This document shows positions 2,048 through 61,010 of a DNA stretch of 64,000 bases, one piece after another. Under the pieces are notes generated by a model. That model was not told the DNA's origin. It worked only from the letters and a program-made list of their open reading frames with translations, and did no database searches. The stretch comes from Nannocystis bainbridge (GTDB taxonomy: Bacteria; Myxococcota_A; Polyangia; Nannocystales; Nannocystaceae). The stretch is from NCBI RefSeq assembly GCF_028368995.1, contig NZ_JAQNDL010000002.1, forward strand, positions 609,724 to 673,723, in the 5' to 3' direction. Positions within the stretch are counted from its first letter, which is position 1; each line of letters begins with the position of its first letter. The translations under genes were made by a program, and so were the position numbers.

Positions 2048-2688
2048 ATCTTCGGACATGGTCGATCGGGCATGTCTTATGGGCCATGCTCATCGGGGCC
2101 TGCGCGAAGGGACAGGCGAGCGGGTCGGCCGCGCCGCCCGAGCTGAAGGACGCCGACTACCCGGGGGCGCTGGCGACGACGCTGGCCGGGCCCGACTTCA
2201 TGGCCCGCCAGCGGCTGCGCGGGACCGCCCGCGGGCGCGAGTTCGGCGGCGAGGTGGTGCTGCAGAAGCAGGGCGACGGGCTGACGCTGATCGGGCTGAC
2301 GCCGTTCTCGACCAAGGCGTTCGTGGCCAAGCAGCAGGGCGCCGCGGTGCAGGTCGACGTGTTCGCGCCGGAGGGCAAGCTGCCGTTCCCGCCGCGCTTC
2401 ATGCTGCTCGACGTGCATCGGGTCCAGTTCCTCGGGCTGCCGGGGGCGCCGCTGGCCGACGGGACCCACGCGGGCGAGGTCGGCGAGGAGGCGGTGACCG
2501 AGGTGTGGCAGGGCGGGGCGCTGCTCGAGCGCCGCTTCGAGCGCAAGGACGGCAAGCCGGCCGGGACGATCGTGGTGACCTACGAGGGCGGGATGAAGGA
2601 CGGCGCGCTGCCGGCCCGGCTGAAGCTGGTCAACGGGTGGTTCGGCTACGAGATCGCGGTCGAGACGCTGCAGTGGCAGCCGCTGTGA
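2044..2688 (+). CDS. Lipoprotein paired with the exporter (LolA/DUF3261-like); start ATG overlaps upstream stop (ATGA)
   Basis: N-terminal signal peptide with lipobox-like LIGAC. 4-nt start/stop overlap with the exporter suggests translational coupling. Real start is internal to six-frame ORF 892..2688. Confidence 0.55.
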   Translation: MNLRTWSIGHVLWAMLIGACAKGQASGSAAPPELKDADYPGALATTLAGPDFMARQRLRGTARGREFGGEVVLQKQGDGLTLIGLTPFSTKAFVAKQQGAAVQVDVFAPEGKLPFPPRFMLLDVHRVQFLGLPGAPLADGTHAGEVGEEAVTEVWQGGALLERRFERKDGKPAGTIVVTYEGGMKDGALPARLKLVNGWFGYEIAVETLQWQPL

Positions 2689-2749
2689 GGCGGGGACAGC
2701 GGCGCGCCGACGTTATCGAGGCGGCCGAGACACCGCGCGGCGTGAACCG

Positions 2750-2830
2750 CGGTGCTCGAAGAGCATGTCCCAAAGGGCATGTTCGTTGCGACATGTGAAA
2801 ACGGCCATGTCCTTGGGGACATGGCCGAAG
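2750..2830. repeat. REP-like hairpin repeats (CATGTCC-N4-GGGCATG / CATGTCC-TTGG-GGACATG)
   Basis: gagcatgtcccaaagggcatgttcg...ggccatgtccttggggacatggcc: perfect 7-bp inverted arms around 4-nt loops. Confidence 0.6.
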
Positions 2831-2870
2831 AGGCTGGCACGATCGGCGCCGGGGGGAGCGGCGCCGGGGC

Positions 2871-3230
2871 TCAGCGGTTCTCGAGCTTGAAGCCGGTCAG
2901 GCAGCGCTCGCCGCCGTTGCCGGCCTTGTAGGTCGGGGTCACCTCGACCTGCTTGCGGGCGCGCATGGCCTCGAACAGCAGGTTGATCCCGCTGGCGCTG
3001 ACGTCGCGGCCAGGGCACAGCGAGCCGCCCCACTTGTAGTCGCGCTTCTGTCCGGTCTTCTCCTTGAGGGTGACCGAGCCGTTGAACATGGCGTGGTTGT
3101 CGCTGCTGCTCTCGTAGAGGGTGACGGCTTCGACGTTGCCGGCGACTCCGTTGGAGTCGGCGAAGGCGACGGCGGGGAGCAGGAGCGCCGACAGGGCGGC
3201 GATCAGGGACAGGCGGGGACGGTGCGACAT
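2871..3230 (-). CDS. Small secreted protein, hypothetical
   Basis: 119-aa ORF with N-terminal signal peptide (LIAALSALLLPAVAFA). GGAGAA RBS about 8 nt upstream of ATG at 3230. Non-repetitive composition. Confidence 0.5.
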   Translation of the reverse strand: MSHRPRLSLIAALSALLLPAVAFADSNGVAGNVEAVTLYESSSDNHAMFNGSVTLKEKTGQKRDYKWGGSLCPGRDVSASGINLLFEAMRARKQVEVTPTYKAGNGGERCLTGFKLENR

Positions 3231-3399
3231 GGTGATTCTCCTGGGGGGTGACCCGTGGGTGCGGGTCGGATTGCGGGGGCAAGAGTCCTATTTGCGTCCT
3301 CGACCTGCAACACCTCGTGCGCCGACGATCTGCGCGGGATCATGCGCCAGGGCGCGTGAGCGCCCGTTGCGGGCGAGCGGCGACAGGTCCGGCCTGGAG

Positions 3400-3720
3400 A
3401 CAGAGATGTCTCTCGGGACATGTCGATGAAACGCGTTCCAGGGACAGGTGACCGGGCTCCGAGAAGGACGTGTCTCTCGGGACATGTCGAAGCATCACGG
3501 GTCTGGGACAGGTGACCGGGCCGGAGAACCATGTGTCTCTCGGGACAGGTCGAAGGCGCGCGCTCCGGGGCCGGGCGGCGCCGAGAGCGGCATGTCCTCG
3601 GGGACATGTCGATGGAGCGCGGTCCGGGGACAGGTGGCCGTCCGGAGCGGCGGGATGGCTCCCGGGACATGTCAAACGCGACATGCCCCGAGGGACAGGT
3701 CTAGCCGCGCTGACGCAGGG
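3400..3720. repeat. Tandem array of REP-like GGGACATGTC / GGGACAGGTG hairpin repeats with 63-66 bp higher-order unit (3 copies)
   Basis: Repeated blocks gtctctcgggacatgtcga[a/t]g ... gggacaggtgaccgggc[c/t]..gagaa ... gtg seen three times, plus further single copies up to 3710. Confidence 0.75.
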
Positions 3721-4621
3721 CACCGCGCAGCTTGACGAGGGTGTCGTCGAGGCGCGAGGCGGGCACGCTGACGCGCGTCGGCATGCCGCCGCCGAGGCCG
3801 AGCAGAGTGACGAAATCGAGGCCGCTCTCGAAGCCGGCGGCGATGTTGAGGGTCTGGCCGTCGATGACCACGGCGATGGTGGCGCGCTGCTGGCCGAGCA
3901 GCAGCAGCTCGGTCTTGTCGAACGGGCGCGGGTTCGCGGGCACGCGCACGAGCGCGACGCCGTCCTCGACGACGTAGGCGCGGGCGAGCGCGGCGGCCTC
4001 GGCGGCCATGGCGTCGAAGTCGGCGGCGGCGGCGGCGATCGCCTCCTGCTCGGCGCCGCGCGGGCGACCGGCGACCAGCCAGCGCACGATCTTGATCAGG
4101 AGGACGGTGTCCTCGTAGTGGGCGCGCAGGGCCTTGTCGACGAGGGCGCCGATCGGGCCGACTTCGCCGGTGCGGGTGTCGACGGCGCGGGCGTCGGCGT
4201 CGGCGCCGGGGTAGGGCTCGACGCCGCCGAGCAGCCACTTGGCGGCGGAGTAGAGGCCGTCGAGGTCGAAGTGGGCGACGATGGTGTCGACCGGACCTGT
4301 CTCCTGGACCATCTGCGGCGTGATGATCTCGGGGCAGGCGCCGTGCTCGGCCTTGGTGTGGAGCACGAAGCGAGCGTCACCGCGGAACTGCGCGTGGCGC
4401 TCGTGATCGTGGTGATCGACCCACCGGGCCAGGCGCGGGCCGAGGCCGTGGAGGAACTTGCCGGTGATCTTCTCGAAGCCGCTGCCGATGCCCTCGGCCG
4501 CAAAGGCGACGTCGAGCACGACGACGCGGCCGCGCAGGCTGGCCGGCTTCGGCAGCCGCCGCGGGCTGGCGAACACCAGGTCGATCGCGGCGGCGTGGGC
4601 GAGGTCGGGCGTGGCCTTCAA
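3701..4621 (-). CDS. Hypothetical protein (contains VDHHDHERH motif; possible DHH-like phosphoesterase, uncertain)
   Basis: 306-aa ORF with balanced composition. 4-nt overlap with the downstream TPR gene suggests an operon. Confidence 0.4.
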   Translation of the reverse strand: MKATPDLAHAAAIDLVFASPRRLPKPASLRGRVVVLDVAFAAEGIGSGFEKITGKFLHGLGPRLARWVDHHDHERHAQFRGDARFVLHTKAEHGACPEIITPQMVQETGPVDTIVAHFDLDGLYSAAKWLLGGVEPYPGADADARAVDTRTGEVGPIGALVDKALRAHYEDTVLLIKIVRWLVAGRPRGAEQEAIAAAAADFDAMAAEAAALARAYVVEDGVALVRVPANPRPFDKTELLLLGQQRATIAVVIDGQTLNIAAGFESGLDFVTLLGLGGGMPTRVSVPASRLDDTLVKLRGALRQRG

Positions 4622-4929
4622 CCTTCCAGCCCGGCGCGAGCGGACTCGAGCTCGCCGAGCGCGTGCGAGTCGCCGGCCTGGCGGGCGATCTCGACGCCGG
4701 CGTCGAGGACCGCCCGCGCGCCCGCGGGATCGCCGGCCTCGAGGAACGTGTTGCCGGCCATCAGGTAGGTGGGCACGTATCCGGGGACGCGCGCGATGAG
4801 CTCCTGGAACTCGGCGATCGCCTCGGCGAGCTGCCCGCGACGCTTGAGCTCCATGGCCAGGCCGTAGCGCGGGAACGCCTCACCTGGCTTCTGGGCCACG
4901 AACTGTCGGAGCATCTCGAGGCGATCCAC
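4618..4929 (-). CDS. TPR-repeat protein
   Basis: 103 aa with tetratricopeptide-like helices (..AEAIAEFQELIARVPGYVPTYLMAGNTFLEAGDPAGA..). Confidence 0.5.
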   Translation of the reverse strand: MDRLEMLRQFVAQKPGEAFPRYGLAMELKRRGQLAEAIAEFQELIARVPGYVPTYLMAGNTFLEAGDPAGARAVLDAGVEIARQAGDSHALGELESARAGLEG

Positions 4930-5587: not shown

Positions 5588-8494
<2,907 letters not shown>

Positions 8495-8625
8495 GCGGCG
8501 GGATGTCTTCGAGGGCATGTCCCGATGGACATGTCTTGGAGAGAATGTCCTCGGGGACATGTCGATGTGAGCATGTCATTCGGGACATGTTCTTGAGGGC
8601 GTGATACGCAGCACGGCCGTGGTTT
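8495..8625. repeat. REP-like CATGTCC/GGACATG repeat cluster
   Basis: gggatgtcttcgagggcatgtcccgatggacatgtcttggagagaatgtcctcggggacatgtcgatgtgagcatgtcattcgggacatgttc. Confidence 0.65.
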
Positions 8626-8646
8626 GCGTGGTGAGGGCCGCCGGGC

Positions 8647-14944: not shown

Positions 14945-14984
14945 AGAGATGGCCCGAAGGACAGGTCGAGGGCGCGGACGCGGC

Positions 14985-15115
14985 GGGGAGTCCGGAGCTC
15001 GCCGTAAGAGCGGGGCATGTCCTCGTGGGCATGTCCTCGCGGGCATGCCTTGAAGGACATGTCTTCATAGACATGCCGAAACGGGCATGTCCCCGGGGAC
15101 ATGCTCAGCGGCGCA
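14985..15115. repeat. REP-like repeat cluster (GCATGTCC-TCGY-GGGCATG iterated about 6x with a ~14-bp period)
   Basis: ggggcatgtcctcgtgggcatgtcctcgcgggcatgccttgaaggacatgtcttcatagacatgccgaaacgggcatgtccccggggacatgctc. Confidence 0.7.
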
Positions 15116-45334: not shown

Positions 45335-45660
45335 ATGGCGGGAGGGACATGGGCTTTGGGACATGTCGGTCGGGCCAGAGGCGGGATGTCAGGGGGGACA
45401 TGTTGGACCTGGTGAAGCGGGCGCGTCATGCTCCGGCACGAGGCATGTGGCGCGAGAGACATGTCCCGATCCACATGCTCGATTCGACATGTCCTGATCG
45501 ACATTCCTGAATGGACATGTTGGGCCTGGTGGAGCGTGCGCGGCCATGCGCTGTTACGAGCCATGCAGCGCGAGAGATGTCCCGATTGACATGCTCTATT
45601 CGACATGTCTGGATCGACATGTCTCGATAGACATGTCTCCGCGGACATGTCCCGCGGCGC
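45335..45660. repeat. Large REP-like repeat array (about 20 CATG-core units)
   Basis: gggacatgggctttgggacatgtcggtcgggc ... gggggacatgttggacctgg ... gagacatgtcccgatccacatgctcgattcgacatgtcctgatcgacattcctgaatggacatgttggg ... gacatgctctattcgacatgtctggatcgacatgtctcgatagacatgtctccgcggacatgtcccgcgg. Confidence 0.75.
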
Positions 45661-45667
45661 GACGGCC

Positions 45668-46642
45668 TCAGCGCGGGCGCGAGATGCCGGGGCCGGGGTC
45701 GGGGCCGATCGGGGCGGGCTTGGGCGAAGGGTCGGGCGGGGGCGGTTCGGGAGGGGCCTGCGGGGTCGTGGCGGCGGTGCCGAGCTCGGTCTCGGCGCTG
45801 ACGTCCTCCGGCAGCACGGGCGCGTCGTAGGGGCGGAAGCGGGTCTTGCCGGCGCGGCCGGCGTTGAGGCGCTCCAGCTCCGCGTCGGTGAACGCCTGCG
45901 GGGTGCCGTACGGCGCGACCTGGCGGACGAAGGCCTCGATCTTGGCGCGGGCGGTGCGGGCGACCTCGAGGCGCATGCGATCGACCTCGGTGCGGCGGTT
46001 GGTGGTCGGGTCCTCGCACTCCTCCCAGCGCTCGAAGATCCGCCGCTTGCGCTCGGCGAGCGGCAGCTTGGCGTCGCGCCACACCTCGGTGAGCTGGCCG
46101 CCGAGGTCGGCGAGCTCGCTGCGCAGGCGCTGCCGGTACCAGGCGTTGGCGAGGTGGAAGCGCAGCTGCTCGGTGGCGATCATGAACGCCTGCTTGGCGC
46201 TCTTGTGGCGGTTCTTGCGGCGGCCGTCGGCGAGGCCGCCGAAGCGGGCGCCGAAGCCGGCGAGGATCGGGGCGGCGCCGAACGGGGCGGCGCGGCGCGG
46301 GTACACGGCCTCGTCGATCACGCCCATGAACCACGGCGGGTGACGCTCGGGCTCGGGCTCGCGGAGGCGACGGCGCCACAGGTCGAGGCCGAGGAAGTTG
46401 ATGTCGGCGGTGCCGCCGTGGTCGCGGAACTCGACCGAACCGTCGGGGTAGATGACGGCGGTGAAGCCGTCGCCGCGGTGCTTGAGGCGGCCGGCGCTGT
46501 CGGGCTCGAGGTCGACGGAGGGCCGCGGGATGTCGGGCGGGAGCTTGGCCGGGGCGGCGTGCAGCGCGGGCGCGACGGCCAGGCCCAGCACGACCGCGCT
46601 CGCGCGCACGAGACGGGAGCTGAGCGAGGAGCGCGGGCGCAT
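45668..46642 (-). CDS. Secreted hypothetical protein
   Basis: Signal peptide (VVLGLAVAPALHAAPA), coherent 324-aa sequence with a Pro-rich C-terminus. Confidence 0.45.
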   Translation of the reverse strand: MRPRSSLSSRLVRASAVVLGLAVAPALHAAPAKLPPDIPRPSVDLEPDSAGRLKHRGDGFTAVIYPDGSVEFRDHGGTADINFLGLDLWRRRLREPEPERHPPWFMGVIDEAVYPRRAAPFGAAPILAGFGARFGGLADGRRKNRHKSAKQAFMIATEQLRFHLANAWYRQRLRSELADLGGQLTEVWRDAKLPLAERKRRIFERWEECEDPTTNRRTEVDRMRLEVARTARAKIEAFVRQVAPYGTPQAFTDAELERLNAGRAGKTRFRPYDAPVLPEDVSAETELGTAATTPQAPPEPPPPDPSPKPAPIGPDPGPGISRPR

Positions 46643-50206: not shown

Positions 50207-53200
50207 ATGTCGACGCCGCCCGACACGCCGCCCGACACGAAGGCCGCCCGCGGTGCAGGTGCGGGCACGTGGGCCGACGTCGACGTCCATCGTCTCCATG
50301 CGCGCGTGATGGGCCGGCTGTTCGGCGAGCCGGCCGCGCCCACCATGATCGGCAGGTTCCATGTCGAGCGCCGGCTGGGGTCGGGGGCCATGGGCGTCGT
50401 CTATGCGGCCGTCGACGCCCAGCTCAATCGCCGGGTCGCCATCAAGCTGCTGCACCCGCACCTGCAGGGCGACGAGCAAGGCCGCGCTCGACTGCTGCGC
50501 GAGGCCCGGGCGATGGCCCGCCTCGAGCACGATCACGTGGTGCGGATCTACGAGGTCGGCGCGTGGGGCGACCAGATCTACATCGCCATGGAGCTGATCG
50601 AGGGGGTGACCCTCGACGCGTGGCTGCGCGAGCGCCCGCGGGCCTGGCAGGCGGTGCTGACGGTGTACCTGCAAGCGGGGCGGGCGCTGGCGGCGGCCCA
50701 CCACGCGGGGCTGCTGCACCGCGACTTCAAGCCCGAGAACGTGCTCGTCGACCACCGCGACCGCGCCCGCGTCCTCGACTTCGGGCTGACGTGCGCGCTC
50801 GATGCCGGCGAGGCGCTCGACGACGAGCTGATGCCGCTGACCCGCACCGGCAGCATCCTCGGCACGCCGGCGTACATGGCCCCCGAGCAGCAGCGCACCG
50901 GCAACGCGGAGCCGCGCTCCGACCAATTCAGCTTCTGCGTGGCGCTGTTCGAAGGTTTGTTCGGTCTGCGGCCGTTCGGCTCGGTTCCGCGCTTCGGTCA
51001 GGTCGAGATCGCGCCCATTCCGCGGGAAAGTCGCGTCCCTTTGCGCATCCGCCGCGCGATCTTTCGCGGCCTGTCCGAAAAGCCAGATGCGCGCTGGCCG
51101 GGCATGGACGACCTGCTGGCGGCCTTGCAGGCGCCGCGCCGGTTCGTCGGCGGGCCCGAGGACGGGCGGGCGCGGCCGTGGCTGCTGGCGGGCGGAGTGA
51201 CGCTCGCGGCCGCGGGGCTGGTGGCGCTCGGCGTGTCGCTGGCGCAGCCGGAGACGGGCGATGCGGTGGCGGAGGGGCCAGAGCCGGGGCCGCTCGCGAG
51301 CGCGCCCGACGAGGCGCAGGCCGACGCGCTGGCGACCGAGCGCGCGGCCGCCGAACGCCAGGCCCACGCGCTGCGGGTCCGCGACGCCGCGCTGTCGCTG
51401 CTGCCCCGCGATCCGACGACGGCGGCGCTGCTGCTGCGCGAGCTCGACGATCCCGGAGCGCTGGCCCAGCGGGTGCTGGCGGAGCCGATCAGCGCGGCGA
51501 TCCTGCGCGGCCACGACGGGCCGGTGGTGGCGGTGCGCTGGATCGAGGCTGTCCCGGGGGACAGGGGCGCGGTGCCGGGGGCGGCGAGCGAGGCTGTCCC
51601 GAGGGACAGGTCGCATGGCGCGCCGGCAGGGTCCGCGAGCGCGGCGGTGCTGGCGAGCGGTTCTGTCCGTGCGGGCAGCGGCGGGGCTGTCCTCCGGGAC
51701 AGGTCGGGCGGCGAGGCGGCGCTCCTTGGGAGCGGGTCGATGCCGCACGACATGGCTGTCCTCGGGGACAGGTCACGAGTGAGCGGTACGGCTGGCCTTT
51801 CGGACAGTTCACGCGCGCGTGAGCCGATCGAAAAGACTGTCCTTCGGGACATGTCGCGAGCGAGCGGAGCGGCGGTGCTGGCGAGCGGCGTCGGCTCACC
51901 TGTCCCGGGGGACAGTTTGGCGTCGCCTGTCCCGCAGGACAGCTCGAGAACACCGCCGGCGGAGCTGCGCGGCGCGGTCGAGACCGTCGACGCCTCCGGG
52001 CACGTGCGTCGGTTCGCGATCGCCGGCGGGCCGCCGACCCCCGGCGCGGGCAGCTTCGGCGCCGACCCGCGCCGCGGCCCTGCGGGCGAGGAGCTGCGGG
52101 TCGACGCTCGCGGCGGCGTGTCGCTGGTCGCCGGCGAGCGCGTGACGGCCCTGCGCGGCGTCGTCGGCCCGCTCGCGGCGGTCGCCTGGAGCCCCGACGG
52201 CCAGGAAATCGCCGCGGCCGGCCCGCGCGGCGAAGTGTGGCGGATCGCCGGGGGGCGCCCGATCGCCGTCGGCGAGCGCGGCGCGGCCGTCGGCGCGCTG
52301 GCGTGGGACCGCGGCGGGCGGCACCTCGCGATCGGCCGCGACGACGGCGGGGTCGAGGTGTGGCGTATCGACGGCGCGGCGCGGCGGATAGCGGCGGTGG
52401 TCGGCGACGGCGGCGTCACCGGCCTGGCTCTCGGGACAGGTTGGTTCGCCAGCGGCAGCGACGACGGCAGCGCGCGGGTGTGGCGGATCGGCGGGGTCGG
52501 GCGGCCCTTCGTGCTGCGTGGTCACACCGGGCCGGTTCGGGCGCTGGCGTTCGCGCCCGGCGGTGTCCGCCTGATCACCGGCAGCGACGACGGCAGCGCG
52601 CGGGTGTGGCGGCTCAGCCCGGCGGCGGTGCGCGAGCACGACCTCGGCGCGGTCGTGCACGCGCTCGCCTGGAGCCCCGACGGCACCGCGCTGGCGGCCG
52701 CCGGGGCGCGCAGCGTGTGGCTGCTGCCGACCGACGGCGGGCCGGTGCGCCGGCGCGACCACGCCGGCACCGCGCTGGCGCTGGCCTGGCGCGGCGACGG
52801 TCAGGAGCTGGCGGTCGCCGACGACGGCGGCGCGATCACGTGGATCCCCCGCGGCGAGGGCGAGCCGCGGCGGGCCAGCGTCGACCGCCGCCCGCTACCC
52901 GCGCTGGCCTGGGATCCTCGGTCCTCGCGCCTGGCCGCCGGCGGCAGCGACGGCGCGTTCTTCATCTGGCCTTCAGGACATGACTTCAAGGACATGGCCG
53001 ATCCGACCCGCGCGCCGCAGGGCCGCGGGGCCATCGCCGCGCTGGCCTGGTCGCCGGTCGACGATCGACTGGCGGCCGTCACCGCGTCCGGCTACGTGCT
53101 CGTGCGCACCGAGCAGACCGTGTTCATCGAGCTCGGCCAGCCGCTGCGCGGGCTGGCGTGGAGCCCCGCCGGCGACGCCCTGGCGATCGTCGGCGACAAT

Positions 53201-53623
53201 CGGGCGCTGGTGCGCATCGCCGCGGCCACTGGCGTGCGTACCGAGCTGGGGCGGGCCGCGGCGGCGCTGACGAGCGTCGCCTGGGACCCGCGCGATCGCT
53301 GGATCGTCGCCGGCGCGGCCGACGGCGGGCTGCTCCACTGGTCGCTGCAGAGCGAGGGCGGGCCCGAGCTGCTCGTGGGCCACGGCGGCGGCATTCATGC
53401 CCTGGCGTTCGACACCGCCGGTGACCGCTTCGCCTCGGCGGGCGGCGACGGCCGCGTCGTCGTCTGGCCGCGCCCGGGCGAGGGCCTGCGCGCGCGCATC
53501 GCCGACGCCACGCGCGCCTGCCTGCAGCCTGCGGATCGCCGGCGTCATCTCGGTGAATCGCAGGACATCGCCGACGCAGGAGCCGCGGCTTGCGAGCGAT
53601 CATTTGGTAATGTGGATTACTAA
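50207..53623 (+). CDS. Serine/threonine protein kinase with disordered repeat linker and C-terminal WD40 beta-propeller
   Basis: Hanks kinase subdomains (GSGAMGVVY, AIK, HRDFKPEN, DFG, APE), then a linker encoded by REP-like repeats (51545-51950), then WD40 repeats (GHDGPVVAVRW, GHTGPVRALAF ... GSDDGSARVWR). Confidence 0.8.
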   Translation: MSTPPDTPPDTKAARGAGAGTWADVDVHRLHARVMGRLFGEPAAPTMIGRFHVERRLGSGAMGVVYAAVDAQLNRRVAIKLLHPHLQGDEQGRARLLREARAMARLEHDHVVRIYEVGAWGDQIYIAMELIEGVTLDAWLRERPRAWQAVLTVYLQAGRALAAAHHAGLLHRDFKPENVLVDHRDRARVLDFGLTCALDAGEALDDELMPLTRTGSILGTPAYMAPEQQRTGNAEPRSDQFSFCVALFEGLFGLRPFGSVPRFGQVEIAPIPRESRVPLRIRRAIFRGLSEKPDARWPGMDDLLAALQAPRRFVGGPEDGRARPWLLAGGVTLAAAGLVALGVSLAQPETGDAVAEGPEPGPLASAPDEAQADALATERAAAERQAHALRVRDAALSLLPRDPTTAALLLRELDDPGALAQRVLAEPISAAILRGHDGPVVAVRWIEAVPGDRGAVPGAASEAVPRDRSHGAPAGSASAAVLASGSVRAGSGGAVLRDRSGGEAALLGSGSMPHDMAVLGDRSRVSGTAGLSDSSRAREPIEKTVLRDMSRASGAAVLASGVGSPVPGDSLASPVPQDSSRTPPAELRGAVETVDASGHVRRFAIAGGPPTPGAGSFGADPRRGPAGEELRVDARGGVSLVAGERVTALRGVVGPLAAVAWSPDGQEIAAAGPRGEVWRIAGGRPIAVGERGAAVGALAWDRGGRHLAIGRDDGGVEVWRIDGAARRIAAVVGDGGVTGLALGTGWFASGSDDGSARVWRIGGVGRPFVLRGHTGPVRALAFAPGGVRLITGSDDGSARVWRLSPAAVREHDLGAVVHALAWSPDGTALAAAGARSVWLLPTDGGPVRRRDHAGTALALAWRGDGQELAVADDGGAITWIPRGEGEPRRASVDRRPLPALAWDPRSSRLAAGGSDGAFFIWPSGHDFKDMADPTRAPQGRGAIAALAWSPVDDRLAAVTASGYVLVRTEQTVFIELGQPLRGLAWSPAGDALAIVGDNRALVRIAAATGVRTELGRAAAALTSVAWDPRDRWIVAGAADGGLLHWSLQSEGGPELLVGHGGGIHALAFDTAGDRFASAGGDGRVVVWPRPGEGLRARIADATRACLQPADRRRHLGESQDIADAGAAACERSFGNVDY

Positions 53624-53944
53624 ATGATCGAATGAGGCTCACCGCGAGCCGCAATGCGCATAGGCGATCGCATGGCGGCCCGCGGCCCCCAGGTCCGGCC
53701 TCGACCGGGGCAGCCGCGCGCGGTCGGCGGCAAACCGCTGGTCATACATCTGTTACGACGCTTTCGAGAATTTTTTGTCGGTGACGGTGATCGATCGGGC
53801 GGGCCTCGTTACTCGAGGGACAGGTCGGGTCTCGCGGTCGTCGCGGTGATCCCGCCCATGCGCCACGGATGGTGCTCTGCCACGGAGGCTGTCTCTCAGG
53901 CCAGGATGGCCACATCTATTCCTCGCGGTCCGTCAGGCCGTCGC

Positions 53945-60894: not shown

Positions 60895-61010
60895 GATCTA
60901 TCGATCGTCGTCTTGGAGACATGTACCGAAGGTCATGCCCCAAAGGTCATGCCTGTATGGACATGCTCGATCGAGCATGCCTCGTCGACCATGTCGTCTC
61001 AGCCGAGCTC
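60895..61010. repeat. REP-like repeat cluster (CATG/CCATG variant)
   Basis: ggagacatgtaccgaaggtcatgccccaaaggtcatgcctgtatggacatgctcgatcgagcatgcctcgtcgaccatgtcgtc. Confidence 0.55.

Follow-up and report, generated by a model that had tools for sequence, protein, structure and literature searches.

The array at positions 3361–3703 of the Nannocystis bainbridge DNA analyzed here (a stretch of 64,000 nucleotides, hereafter the window) is a locus-specific minisatellite, in which a segment of ~60–64 bp by the 3′ end of the gene at 3701–4621 has been duplicated head-to-tail. Each unit of the array consists of one copy of a dispersed palindromic repeat family followed by ~45 nt of sequence specific to this locus, in which there is a degenerate half core. 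The explanation we favour, with moderate confidence, is that a local minisatellite grew on a REP-like Nannocystis repeat, with the conserved gene-proximal hairpin as its working part and the internal units as by-products. The array itself is an ordinary minisatellite, the consequence of closely spaced identical repeats, and not a new kind of system.

Structure of the Array and Its Neighbouring Genes

The window has a GC content of 72.9%, and a WD40 protein that it encodes at 60999–62864 matches an N. bainbridge entry with 100% identity. Tandem Repeats Finder (TRF), run on the window, reported a period of 64 with 3.8 copies, 74% matches and a score of 227 at 3407–3640. A repeat search found a 61-nt unit in four copies with 67–80% identity to the reference copy, and a 25-nt core block in five copies at spacings of 64, 63, 59 and 63. 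The 18-mer GACATGTCCCGAGAGACA, allowing up to 3 mismatches, matches the window 19 times against 0.05 expected. An earlier reading made from the letters of this DNA (the sequence-only reading) had described three tandem units of 63–66 bp; the periodicity agrees with the TRF period, but the number of units is five (64, 64, 63, 59 and 63 bp), arranged head-to-tail, with a gene-proximal hairpin in addition. The gap of 10 nt that had been placed between the two motifs of the unit is actually 12 nt.

Every unit starts with GACATGTCCCGAGAGACA(Y), and most have GGTCACCTGTCCC about 20 nt further on. In the layout of the gene strand (all pieces are on the minus strand) the array begins with a proximal 30-nt piece, w0, at 3674–3703. 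Unit w1 (3611–3673, 63 bp) has the hairpin block GACATGTCCCGGGAGCCAT and the second motif GGCCACCTGTCC, and w2 (3552–3610, 59 bp) has the hairpin GACATGTCCCCGAGGACAT (−13.2 kcal/mol) and a degenerate second motif. These are followed by w3 (3489–3551, 63 bp) with GACCTGTCCCGAGAGACAC and GGTCACCTGTCC, w4 (3425–3488, 64 bp) with GACATGTCCCGAGAGACAC and GGTCACCTGTCC, and the terminal unit w5 (3361–3424, 64 bp) with GACATGTCCCGAGAGACATCTCTGTCTCC and GACCTGTCGCC, which is orthologous in all four species compared (that of the window, N. exedens, N. radixulma and Nannocystis sp. RBIL2). Units w4, w3 and w1 have an intact GGGACAGGTGACC motif (in w1 with 1 mismatch), which is degenerate in w2 and takes the form GACAGGTCCGGCC in w5.

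The flanking genes had been described correctly; those called on a public contig of 99.6% identity (L081) agree with them. The upstream gene (3701..4621, minus strand, stop codon TAG at 3701–3703) encodes 306 aa and closes a same-strand cluster of a 185-aa, a TPR and the 306-aa gene; Pfam assigned TPR to 4618–4929 and returned no match for the 306-aa and 185-aa proteins. The 306-aa gene has orthologues of 90–92% identity in N. exedens, N. radixulma and RBIL2. A 470-bp gap with the array in it separates this gene from the same-strand downstream gene (2871..3230, minus strand), whose 119-aa product has no Pfam match and an N-terminus resembling a signal peptide; beyond it lies a convergent DUF3261 gene. 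Between the array and the 119-aa gene, 5′ of the latter and outside the array, is a non-repeat block (3231..3360, minus strand) that is a putative promoter or 5′ UTR. This block can be aligned across the four species, even though N. radixulma is without the internal units.

Local Duplication and Unit Number at the Orthologous Locus

The first block of the unit belongs to the dispersed family, unlike the second motif GGTCACCTGTCC, for which we found 10 matches against 6.2 expected, with all 3 close matches inside the array. This confinement of the second motif to the array argues that the unit was duplicated in place and not inserted repeatedly. Together with the alignment of all units to the conserved terminal unit and the variation in unit number among orthologues, it upholds the view of the sequence-only reading that a composite unit was duplicated, as opposed to independent insertions; both the unit alignment and the comparison of orthologous copy number were checks that reading had put forward. 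The approximate unit number is 1 in N. radixulma, 3 in N. exedens, 4 in RBIL2 and 5 in the window, of which 0, 2 (one decayed), 3 and 4, respectively, are internal units. The orthologous intergenic regions retain the terminal unit at one end of the array and, at the other, the proximal hairpin by the stop codon, and TRF reported a period of 58 with 3.6 copies for the orthologous array of RBIL2. The only close strain compared, 99.6% identical, has the same unit number and 2 SNPs in the array. Between species, the orthologous intergenic regions are too diverged to be aligned for an insertion or empty-site comparison, and the close strain has no indels.

The terminal unit w5 is 89–90% identical to the terminal units of N. 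exedens and RBIL2 (84–86% outside the 19-nt hairpin block) and 73% identical to that of N. radixulma. The internal units, within and between species, have a mutual identity of just 45–65% outside the hairpin block, and their 19-nt block, loop included, is 91% identical to the consensus, compared with ~50% for the rest of the unit. Unit r1 of RBIL2 can be aligned to the terminal unit across ~35 nt, which points to w5 as the apparent template of the internal units.

A Dispersed Palindromic Family in Nannocystis

The core of the family is the 8-bp self-complementary GACATGTC, and the family consensus is RRATGTC-N6-GACATGTC. With up to 1 mismatch, GGACATGTC has 125 matches in the 64-kb window against 12 expected, and these fall into ~15 intergenic clusters. 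The spacing between cores is strict: 25 pairs are 14 bp apart, whereas a single pair is 13 bp apart and none is 15 bp apart. Since the core is self-complementary, neighbouring cores can pair to give a stem of 8–10 bp and a loop of 4–6 nt, and the 14-bp phase is the sum of the 8-bp core and a 6-nt loop. Among 80 Myxococcota loci encoding the flanking gene, phased cores are found in the four Nannocystis loci only. Within the genus, the family is spread throughout the genomes of N. punicea, N. pusilla, N. exedens, N. radixulma, SCPEA4 and RBIL2, with a core density of 0.14 to 1.7 per kb depending on the genome region. The value of 0.14 comes from a 1.49-Mb contig of N. exedens (L205) that is rich in IS elements (IS66, ISL3, DDE transposases, reverse transcriptase) and has zero GC skew. 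No description of the GACATGTC family was found in the literature searched, and the family appears to be very abundant, genus-specific and undescribed.

Phasing is not limited to cores that can pair. Direct, non-palindromic core arrays in 14-bp phase are found in Nannocystis locus L003, where GACATGCC occurs four times and neighbours cannot pair well. In L004, a Nannocystis sp. MAG, six direct non-palindromic copies of GACCTGTC at 4678–4760 are in exact 14-bp phase and are followed by an inverted GGGACAGGTG, which indicates that the phase persists even where neighbouring cores cannot pair. A metagenome scan for GACATGTC-N6-GACATGTC was discarded as it mostly recovered unrelated organisms (33–66% GC), with a handful of ~75% GC contigs being Nannocystis-like. 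Two metagenome contigs of ~41% GC carry dense GACATGTC tandem arrays with other periods (L105 5560–5700 and L112 3700–3840) that are unrelated to the Nannocystis family. Four non-Nannocystis metagenome contigs of 63–66% GC (L082, L089, L124 and L150) have TGACATGTCA cores at the same 14-bp spacing, with AT-rich spacers and 2–4 cores per cluster; these may represent a related binding-site or repeat family.

Relative to genes, the family is extragenic, concentrated directly 3′ of stop codons and depleted from divergent promoter regions. Computed on the window and five annotated loci, the density is 8.3 cores per kb in convergent intergenic regions, 5.6 in tandem regions, 1.6 in divergent regions and 0.53 in genes. 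Stop codons are followed by a core within 40 nt in 30, and within 120 nt in 37, of the 92 genes annotated in eight loci; before the start, the counts at these distances are 3 and 9. Nannocystis genomes (11–13 Mb, 72–74% GC) appear to bear a palindromic element after about one third of their genes. The family could serve as an annotation marker of gene 3′ ends where canonical U-tract terminators are not seen: the 29 gene-proximal chains have no U-tract behind them (T makes up 16% of the next 12 nt), and a scan of 2600–4000 for canonical promoters and terminators gave no site.

The window holds further clusters of the family. Five cores in 14-bp phase lie between convergent genes at 2762..2826, a cluster at 14949..15097 fills a convergent intergenic region, a cluster at 8503..8591 with a 28-bp higher-order period lies 8 nt after the stop of a VWA-domain gene, and another at 45335..45652 lies 16 nt after a gene stop and has its own 116-bp higher-order tandem duplication. 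Higher-order periods are also found outside the window (96 bp in L002, 84 bp in L206 and 95 bp in L210), so that local amplification around the hairpins is recurrent and locus-specific. The 116-bp repeat occupies 45396–45620, downstream of the gene at 45668–46642, with 1.9 copies and 82% matches, and after it four perfect cores in 14-bp phase occur at 45601–45652.

The region downstream of the VWA gene was compared between the window (8470–8640), L001 (5600–6150), L002 (5520–6150) and L003 (5920–6080). It is ~100 bp long in the window and in RBIL2 and 450–560 bp in the other two, N. exedens and N. radixulma, both of which have a higher-order repeat of their own on family hairpins. Turnover here is very fast compared with the flanking genes, which are 91–93% identical. 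The family explains such fast turnover of intergenic DNA between species, and it points to candidate loci of variable copy number, for example the array at 3361–3703.

A family-related class of motifs, CTGTCC-N4-GGACAG, is found inside the ORF at 50207–53623 (window 51550–51930 and 52966–52998). These fall in the linker between a Ser/Thr kinase and WD40 repeats (~aa 448–575), where GC3 dips, and the same class forms an 84-bp array in a kinase-WD40 gene of N. pusilla (L206 21118–21565). The genic class is flanked by C..G and the intergenic class by A..T.

Hairpins at the Gene 3′ End

The gene-proximal hairpin (3661..3692, minus strand) starts 8 nt after the TAG stop and is formed by two family cores paired across a 6-nt loop; an extra core, GACCTGTC at 3694–3701, overlaps the stop codon of the gene at 3701–4621. 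Folded as RNA, the hairpin has a free energy of −25.3 kcal/mol (z −3.63), and 0 of 200 shuffled sequences were as stable. All four species have it, in the same place with respect to the stop codon, and its consensus structure has −23.8 kcal/mol and a 14-bp stem. In this stem, one-sided changes retain G·U on the sense strand at 5 pairs, 1 pair is retained after a two-sided change, and 2 pairs are broken, each in one sequence. Family pairs of the form core-N6-core fold at −14 to −23 kcal/mol (z −4.3 to −5), and the hairpin of the first two cores of the 14949–15097 cluster (15010–15045) folds at −23.4 kcal/mol (z −4.3). The internal units are no more stable than shuffled sequence, at −4 to −7 kcal/mol (the local hairpin of w3 has −4 kcal/mol and z +1.1, that of w4 −6.8 kcal/mol and z −0.7), and w2 has −13.2 kcal/mol. 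With the proximal hairpin stable and conserved and the internal units weak, we read the proximal hairpin as a functional 3′-end structure.

The substitutions of neighbouring cores were tested for a trace of pairing. Where a core deviates from the consensus, its neighbour may show the complementary mirror change, as expected of a hairpin, or it may repeat the change position for position, as expected of a direct copy. Compensating neighbours numbered 26 in the window against a shuffled expectation of 13.5 (P = 0.0065), and 24 against 12.3 in four independent loci (P = 0.0115); in the same test, direct-sense identity between neighbouring cores was not enriched. Examples of compensated pairs are GACATGTT-N6-AACATGTC, GACATGCC-N6-GGCATGTC and GACATGCT-N6-AGCATGTC. 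This test replaced one based on covariation of the bases flanking TGTC-N6-GACA (A..T vs C..G), in which the high odds ratios (92 for the window, 7.6 for the metagenome set) proved to be a mixture artefact: once the intergenic A..T class was split from the genic C..G class, the odds ratio was 1.2 (P = 1), and the signal vanished within classes.

The sequence-only reading had offered the whole array as a terminator or insulator. This is plausible mainly for the conserved proximal hairpin, given its stability and its presence in four species, and it is weakened by the missing U-tract and by the poor folding of the internal units.

Proposed Origin and Function of the Array

In the explanation we favour, the proximal hairpin at the stop codon would be the working part, forming a hairpin at the 3′ end of the transcript. 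There it could act as a barrier to exonucleases, as a U-tract-independent terminator insulating the 119-aa gene, or as both. The identical hairpin blocks of 18–19 nt would provide substrates for replication slippage or unequal recombination, and slippage or unequal exchange would have produced between 1 and 5 units in different species, leaving internal units that are presumably weakly folding, fast-diverging by-products. Two observations run counter to a 3′-end hairpin model, namely the lack of a U-tract and the direct arrays of L003 and L004, which are unable to pair. In addition, a pure by-product model fails to explain the 91% conservation of the 19-nt block in the internal units, which hints at sequence-specific recognition or gene conversion. 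For expression work in myxobacteria, the family is a source of candidate parts for terminators or insulators.

The conservation of this block would be accounted for by a broader proposal, in which the GACATGTC family is a genus-specific, sequence-recognized 3′-end signal read by a dedicated protein at about one third of gene ends, and arrays are insulators tunable by copy number. The 19-mer would then be held at 91%, loop included, in units that have otherwise decayed to ~50%. The reader, which would recognize stem and loop sequence, may be a factor that binds RNA or ssDNA or else a HUH transposase that has been domesticated. We regard this proposal as speculative and rather unlikely as it stands.

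A rival explanation is a true REP/BIME system, in which a RAYT (REP-associated tyrosine transposase) would spread the hairpins on single-stranded DNA and the array would be a BIME-type cluster made by that enzyme. The elements are short, extragenic palindromes of high copy number at gene 3′ ends, and their hairpins are maintained. They also show a one-sided polarity in the window: between positions 1 and 53600, clusters on the plus strand, which is the G-rich (leading) strand, place the half core (RRR-ATGTC) first and the full core last in 13 cases against 4 in reverse, as activity on the lagging-strand template could give. However, independent Nannocystis loci show no such bias, and the idea that element polarity is tied to the replication strand was dropped when a skew-independent classification found no association in them. 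The position-weight-matrix version of the polarity measure (log-likelihood vs GC skew, P = 9e-8) is confounded by base composition, and the excess of T..G over C..A spacers, the former being far commoner in the window, can be put down to compositional skew. The units of the array are moreover head-to-tail and without inverted pairs, and the family consensus is without a GTAG/CTAC end motif. No Y1-transposase domain (PF01797) was found on the ~140 genes of ten Nannocystis contigs, which cover <2% of a genome; RAYTs are usually single-copy, and so this is weak evidence. Taken together, a RAYT-made array seems improbable to us.

The skew in the window changes along its length. On the plus strand, GC skew flips from ~+0.1 to ~−0.1 across ~52–56 kb, and genes on either strand show a like flip in their skew at third codon positions. 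A 32-bp palindrome rich in AT, GATCATTTGGTAATGTGGATTACTAAATGATC, lies at 53594–53627, just past the stop of the ORF at 50207–53623, and coincides with the flip. The palindrome is a candidate dif site that fits the E. coli dif consensus only loosely, and the flip and the palindrome together suggest that the window probably spans the replication terminus.

A third possibility is that the array binds protein as dsDNA, either as a multi-site operator, as the sequence-only reading had also suggested, or as a nucleation site for a nucleoid protein, with a dimer on the core or on the 19-mer tuning the 119-aa gene. The conservation of the 19-mer (loop included) and of the 13-mer GGTCACCTGTCCC within units that otherwise diverge would fit such binding, as would a period of 63–64 bp, close to six helical turns. 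Direct, non-palindromic core arrays at 14 bp in L003 and L004, and TGACATGTCA cores at the same phase in unrelated metagenome contigs of 63–66% GC, are also in its favour. Against this, the periods of other arrays (58, 28 and 36 bp) are not multiples of the helical repeat, and the compensation between neighbouring cores favours a hairpin. The position of the family argues against an operator, for which sites would be expected upstream of regulated promoters: the family is scarce in divergent regions (1.6 vs 5.6–8.3 cores per kb) and within 40 nt upstream of starts (3/92), and N. radixulma is nearly without the array, yet has kept the gene and its upstream block. We therefore think an operator unlikely, and hold out little prospect for a protein-binding array in general.

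A structured small RNA, or a riboswitch-like leader in the 5′ UTR of the 119-aa gene, is very improbable. The whole array is somewhat more stable than its shuffles (minus strand z −2.7, plus strand z −3.4), but good folding of both strands is what palindromic repeats should give. Rfam gave no match in the whole window at the gathering threshold and nothing meaningful in 2600–4000 under permissive settings, and the internal units show no conservation from one species to another and are missing from N. radixulma. A small RNA was thus rejected, as was a coding function of the array. A degenerate CRISPR-like array of ~25-nt repeats and ~39-nt spacers is refuted, for its period of 59–64 bp is within the CRISPR range but its repeat blocks are just 72–84% identical, its "spacers" have a common motif, its repeat is a family dispersed across the genome, its terminal unit is common to four species, and the neighbouring genes have no Cas domains, so that near-identical repeats, unrelated spacers and adjacent cas genes are all missing.

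Comparison with Known Systems

The Nannocystis hairpins resemble intrinsic (Rho-independent) terminators in being stable, GC-containing hairpins 0–40 nt from a stop codon, and differ from them in having no U-tract behind them and a stem sequence that is common genome-wide. The DUS of Neisseria and the USS of Haemophilus serve DNA uptake and are also common inside genes. In inverted pairs, they are an over-represented short sequence that forms hairpins just after genes where two copies are near each other, and it is the stem sequence that is conserved, beyond the mere capacity for pairing. The Nannocystis family is alike in these respects; unlike DUS and USS, its core lies mostly outside genes (0.53 per kb within them), and it has no apparent tie to competence.

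The array itself can be set beside the MIRU-type VNTRs of Mycobacterium tuberculosis, which are likewise head-to-tail arrays of 40–100 bp units between same-strand genes, with unit numbers that vary between related genomes. MIRU units are dispersed at many loci, however, whereas the unit of the array is not dispersed and is instead built around a dispersed hairpin element. The variation that we observed is also between species, the two strains compared being identical in unit number.

BIMEs and REPINs consist of two REPs in inverted orientation (PMC6006769). They recur with the same architecture at many loci, in contrast to the composite of the array, which is locus-specific. The "BIME-like mosaic" of the sequence-only reading thus does not hold in the strict sense, as the units are head-to-tail and the 64-bp composite is restricted to the array locus, and the family as a whole has neither the inverted doublets nor the GTAG end motif. 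REPs have a conserved GTAG/CTAC tetranucleotide at their end, and in E. coli the REP hairpins at transcript 3′ ends protect the upstream mRNA from exonucleases. The features that the family does share with REPs are its hairpin-forming palindrome and its high-copy, extragenic distribution. Like the REPs of Escherichia, Pseudomonas and Stenotrophomonas, the elements are imperfect or perfect palindromes of ~22–26 nt that are clustered and very numerous, occupy gene 3′ ends and convergent intergenic regions, seldom occur in divergent promoter regions, and have maintained their potential to form hairpins. Unlike in REPs, the Nannocystis core is itself an 8-bp palindrome that is chained directly at 14 bp, and each core is able to pair with either of its neighbours.
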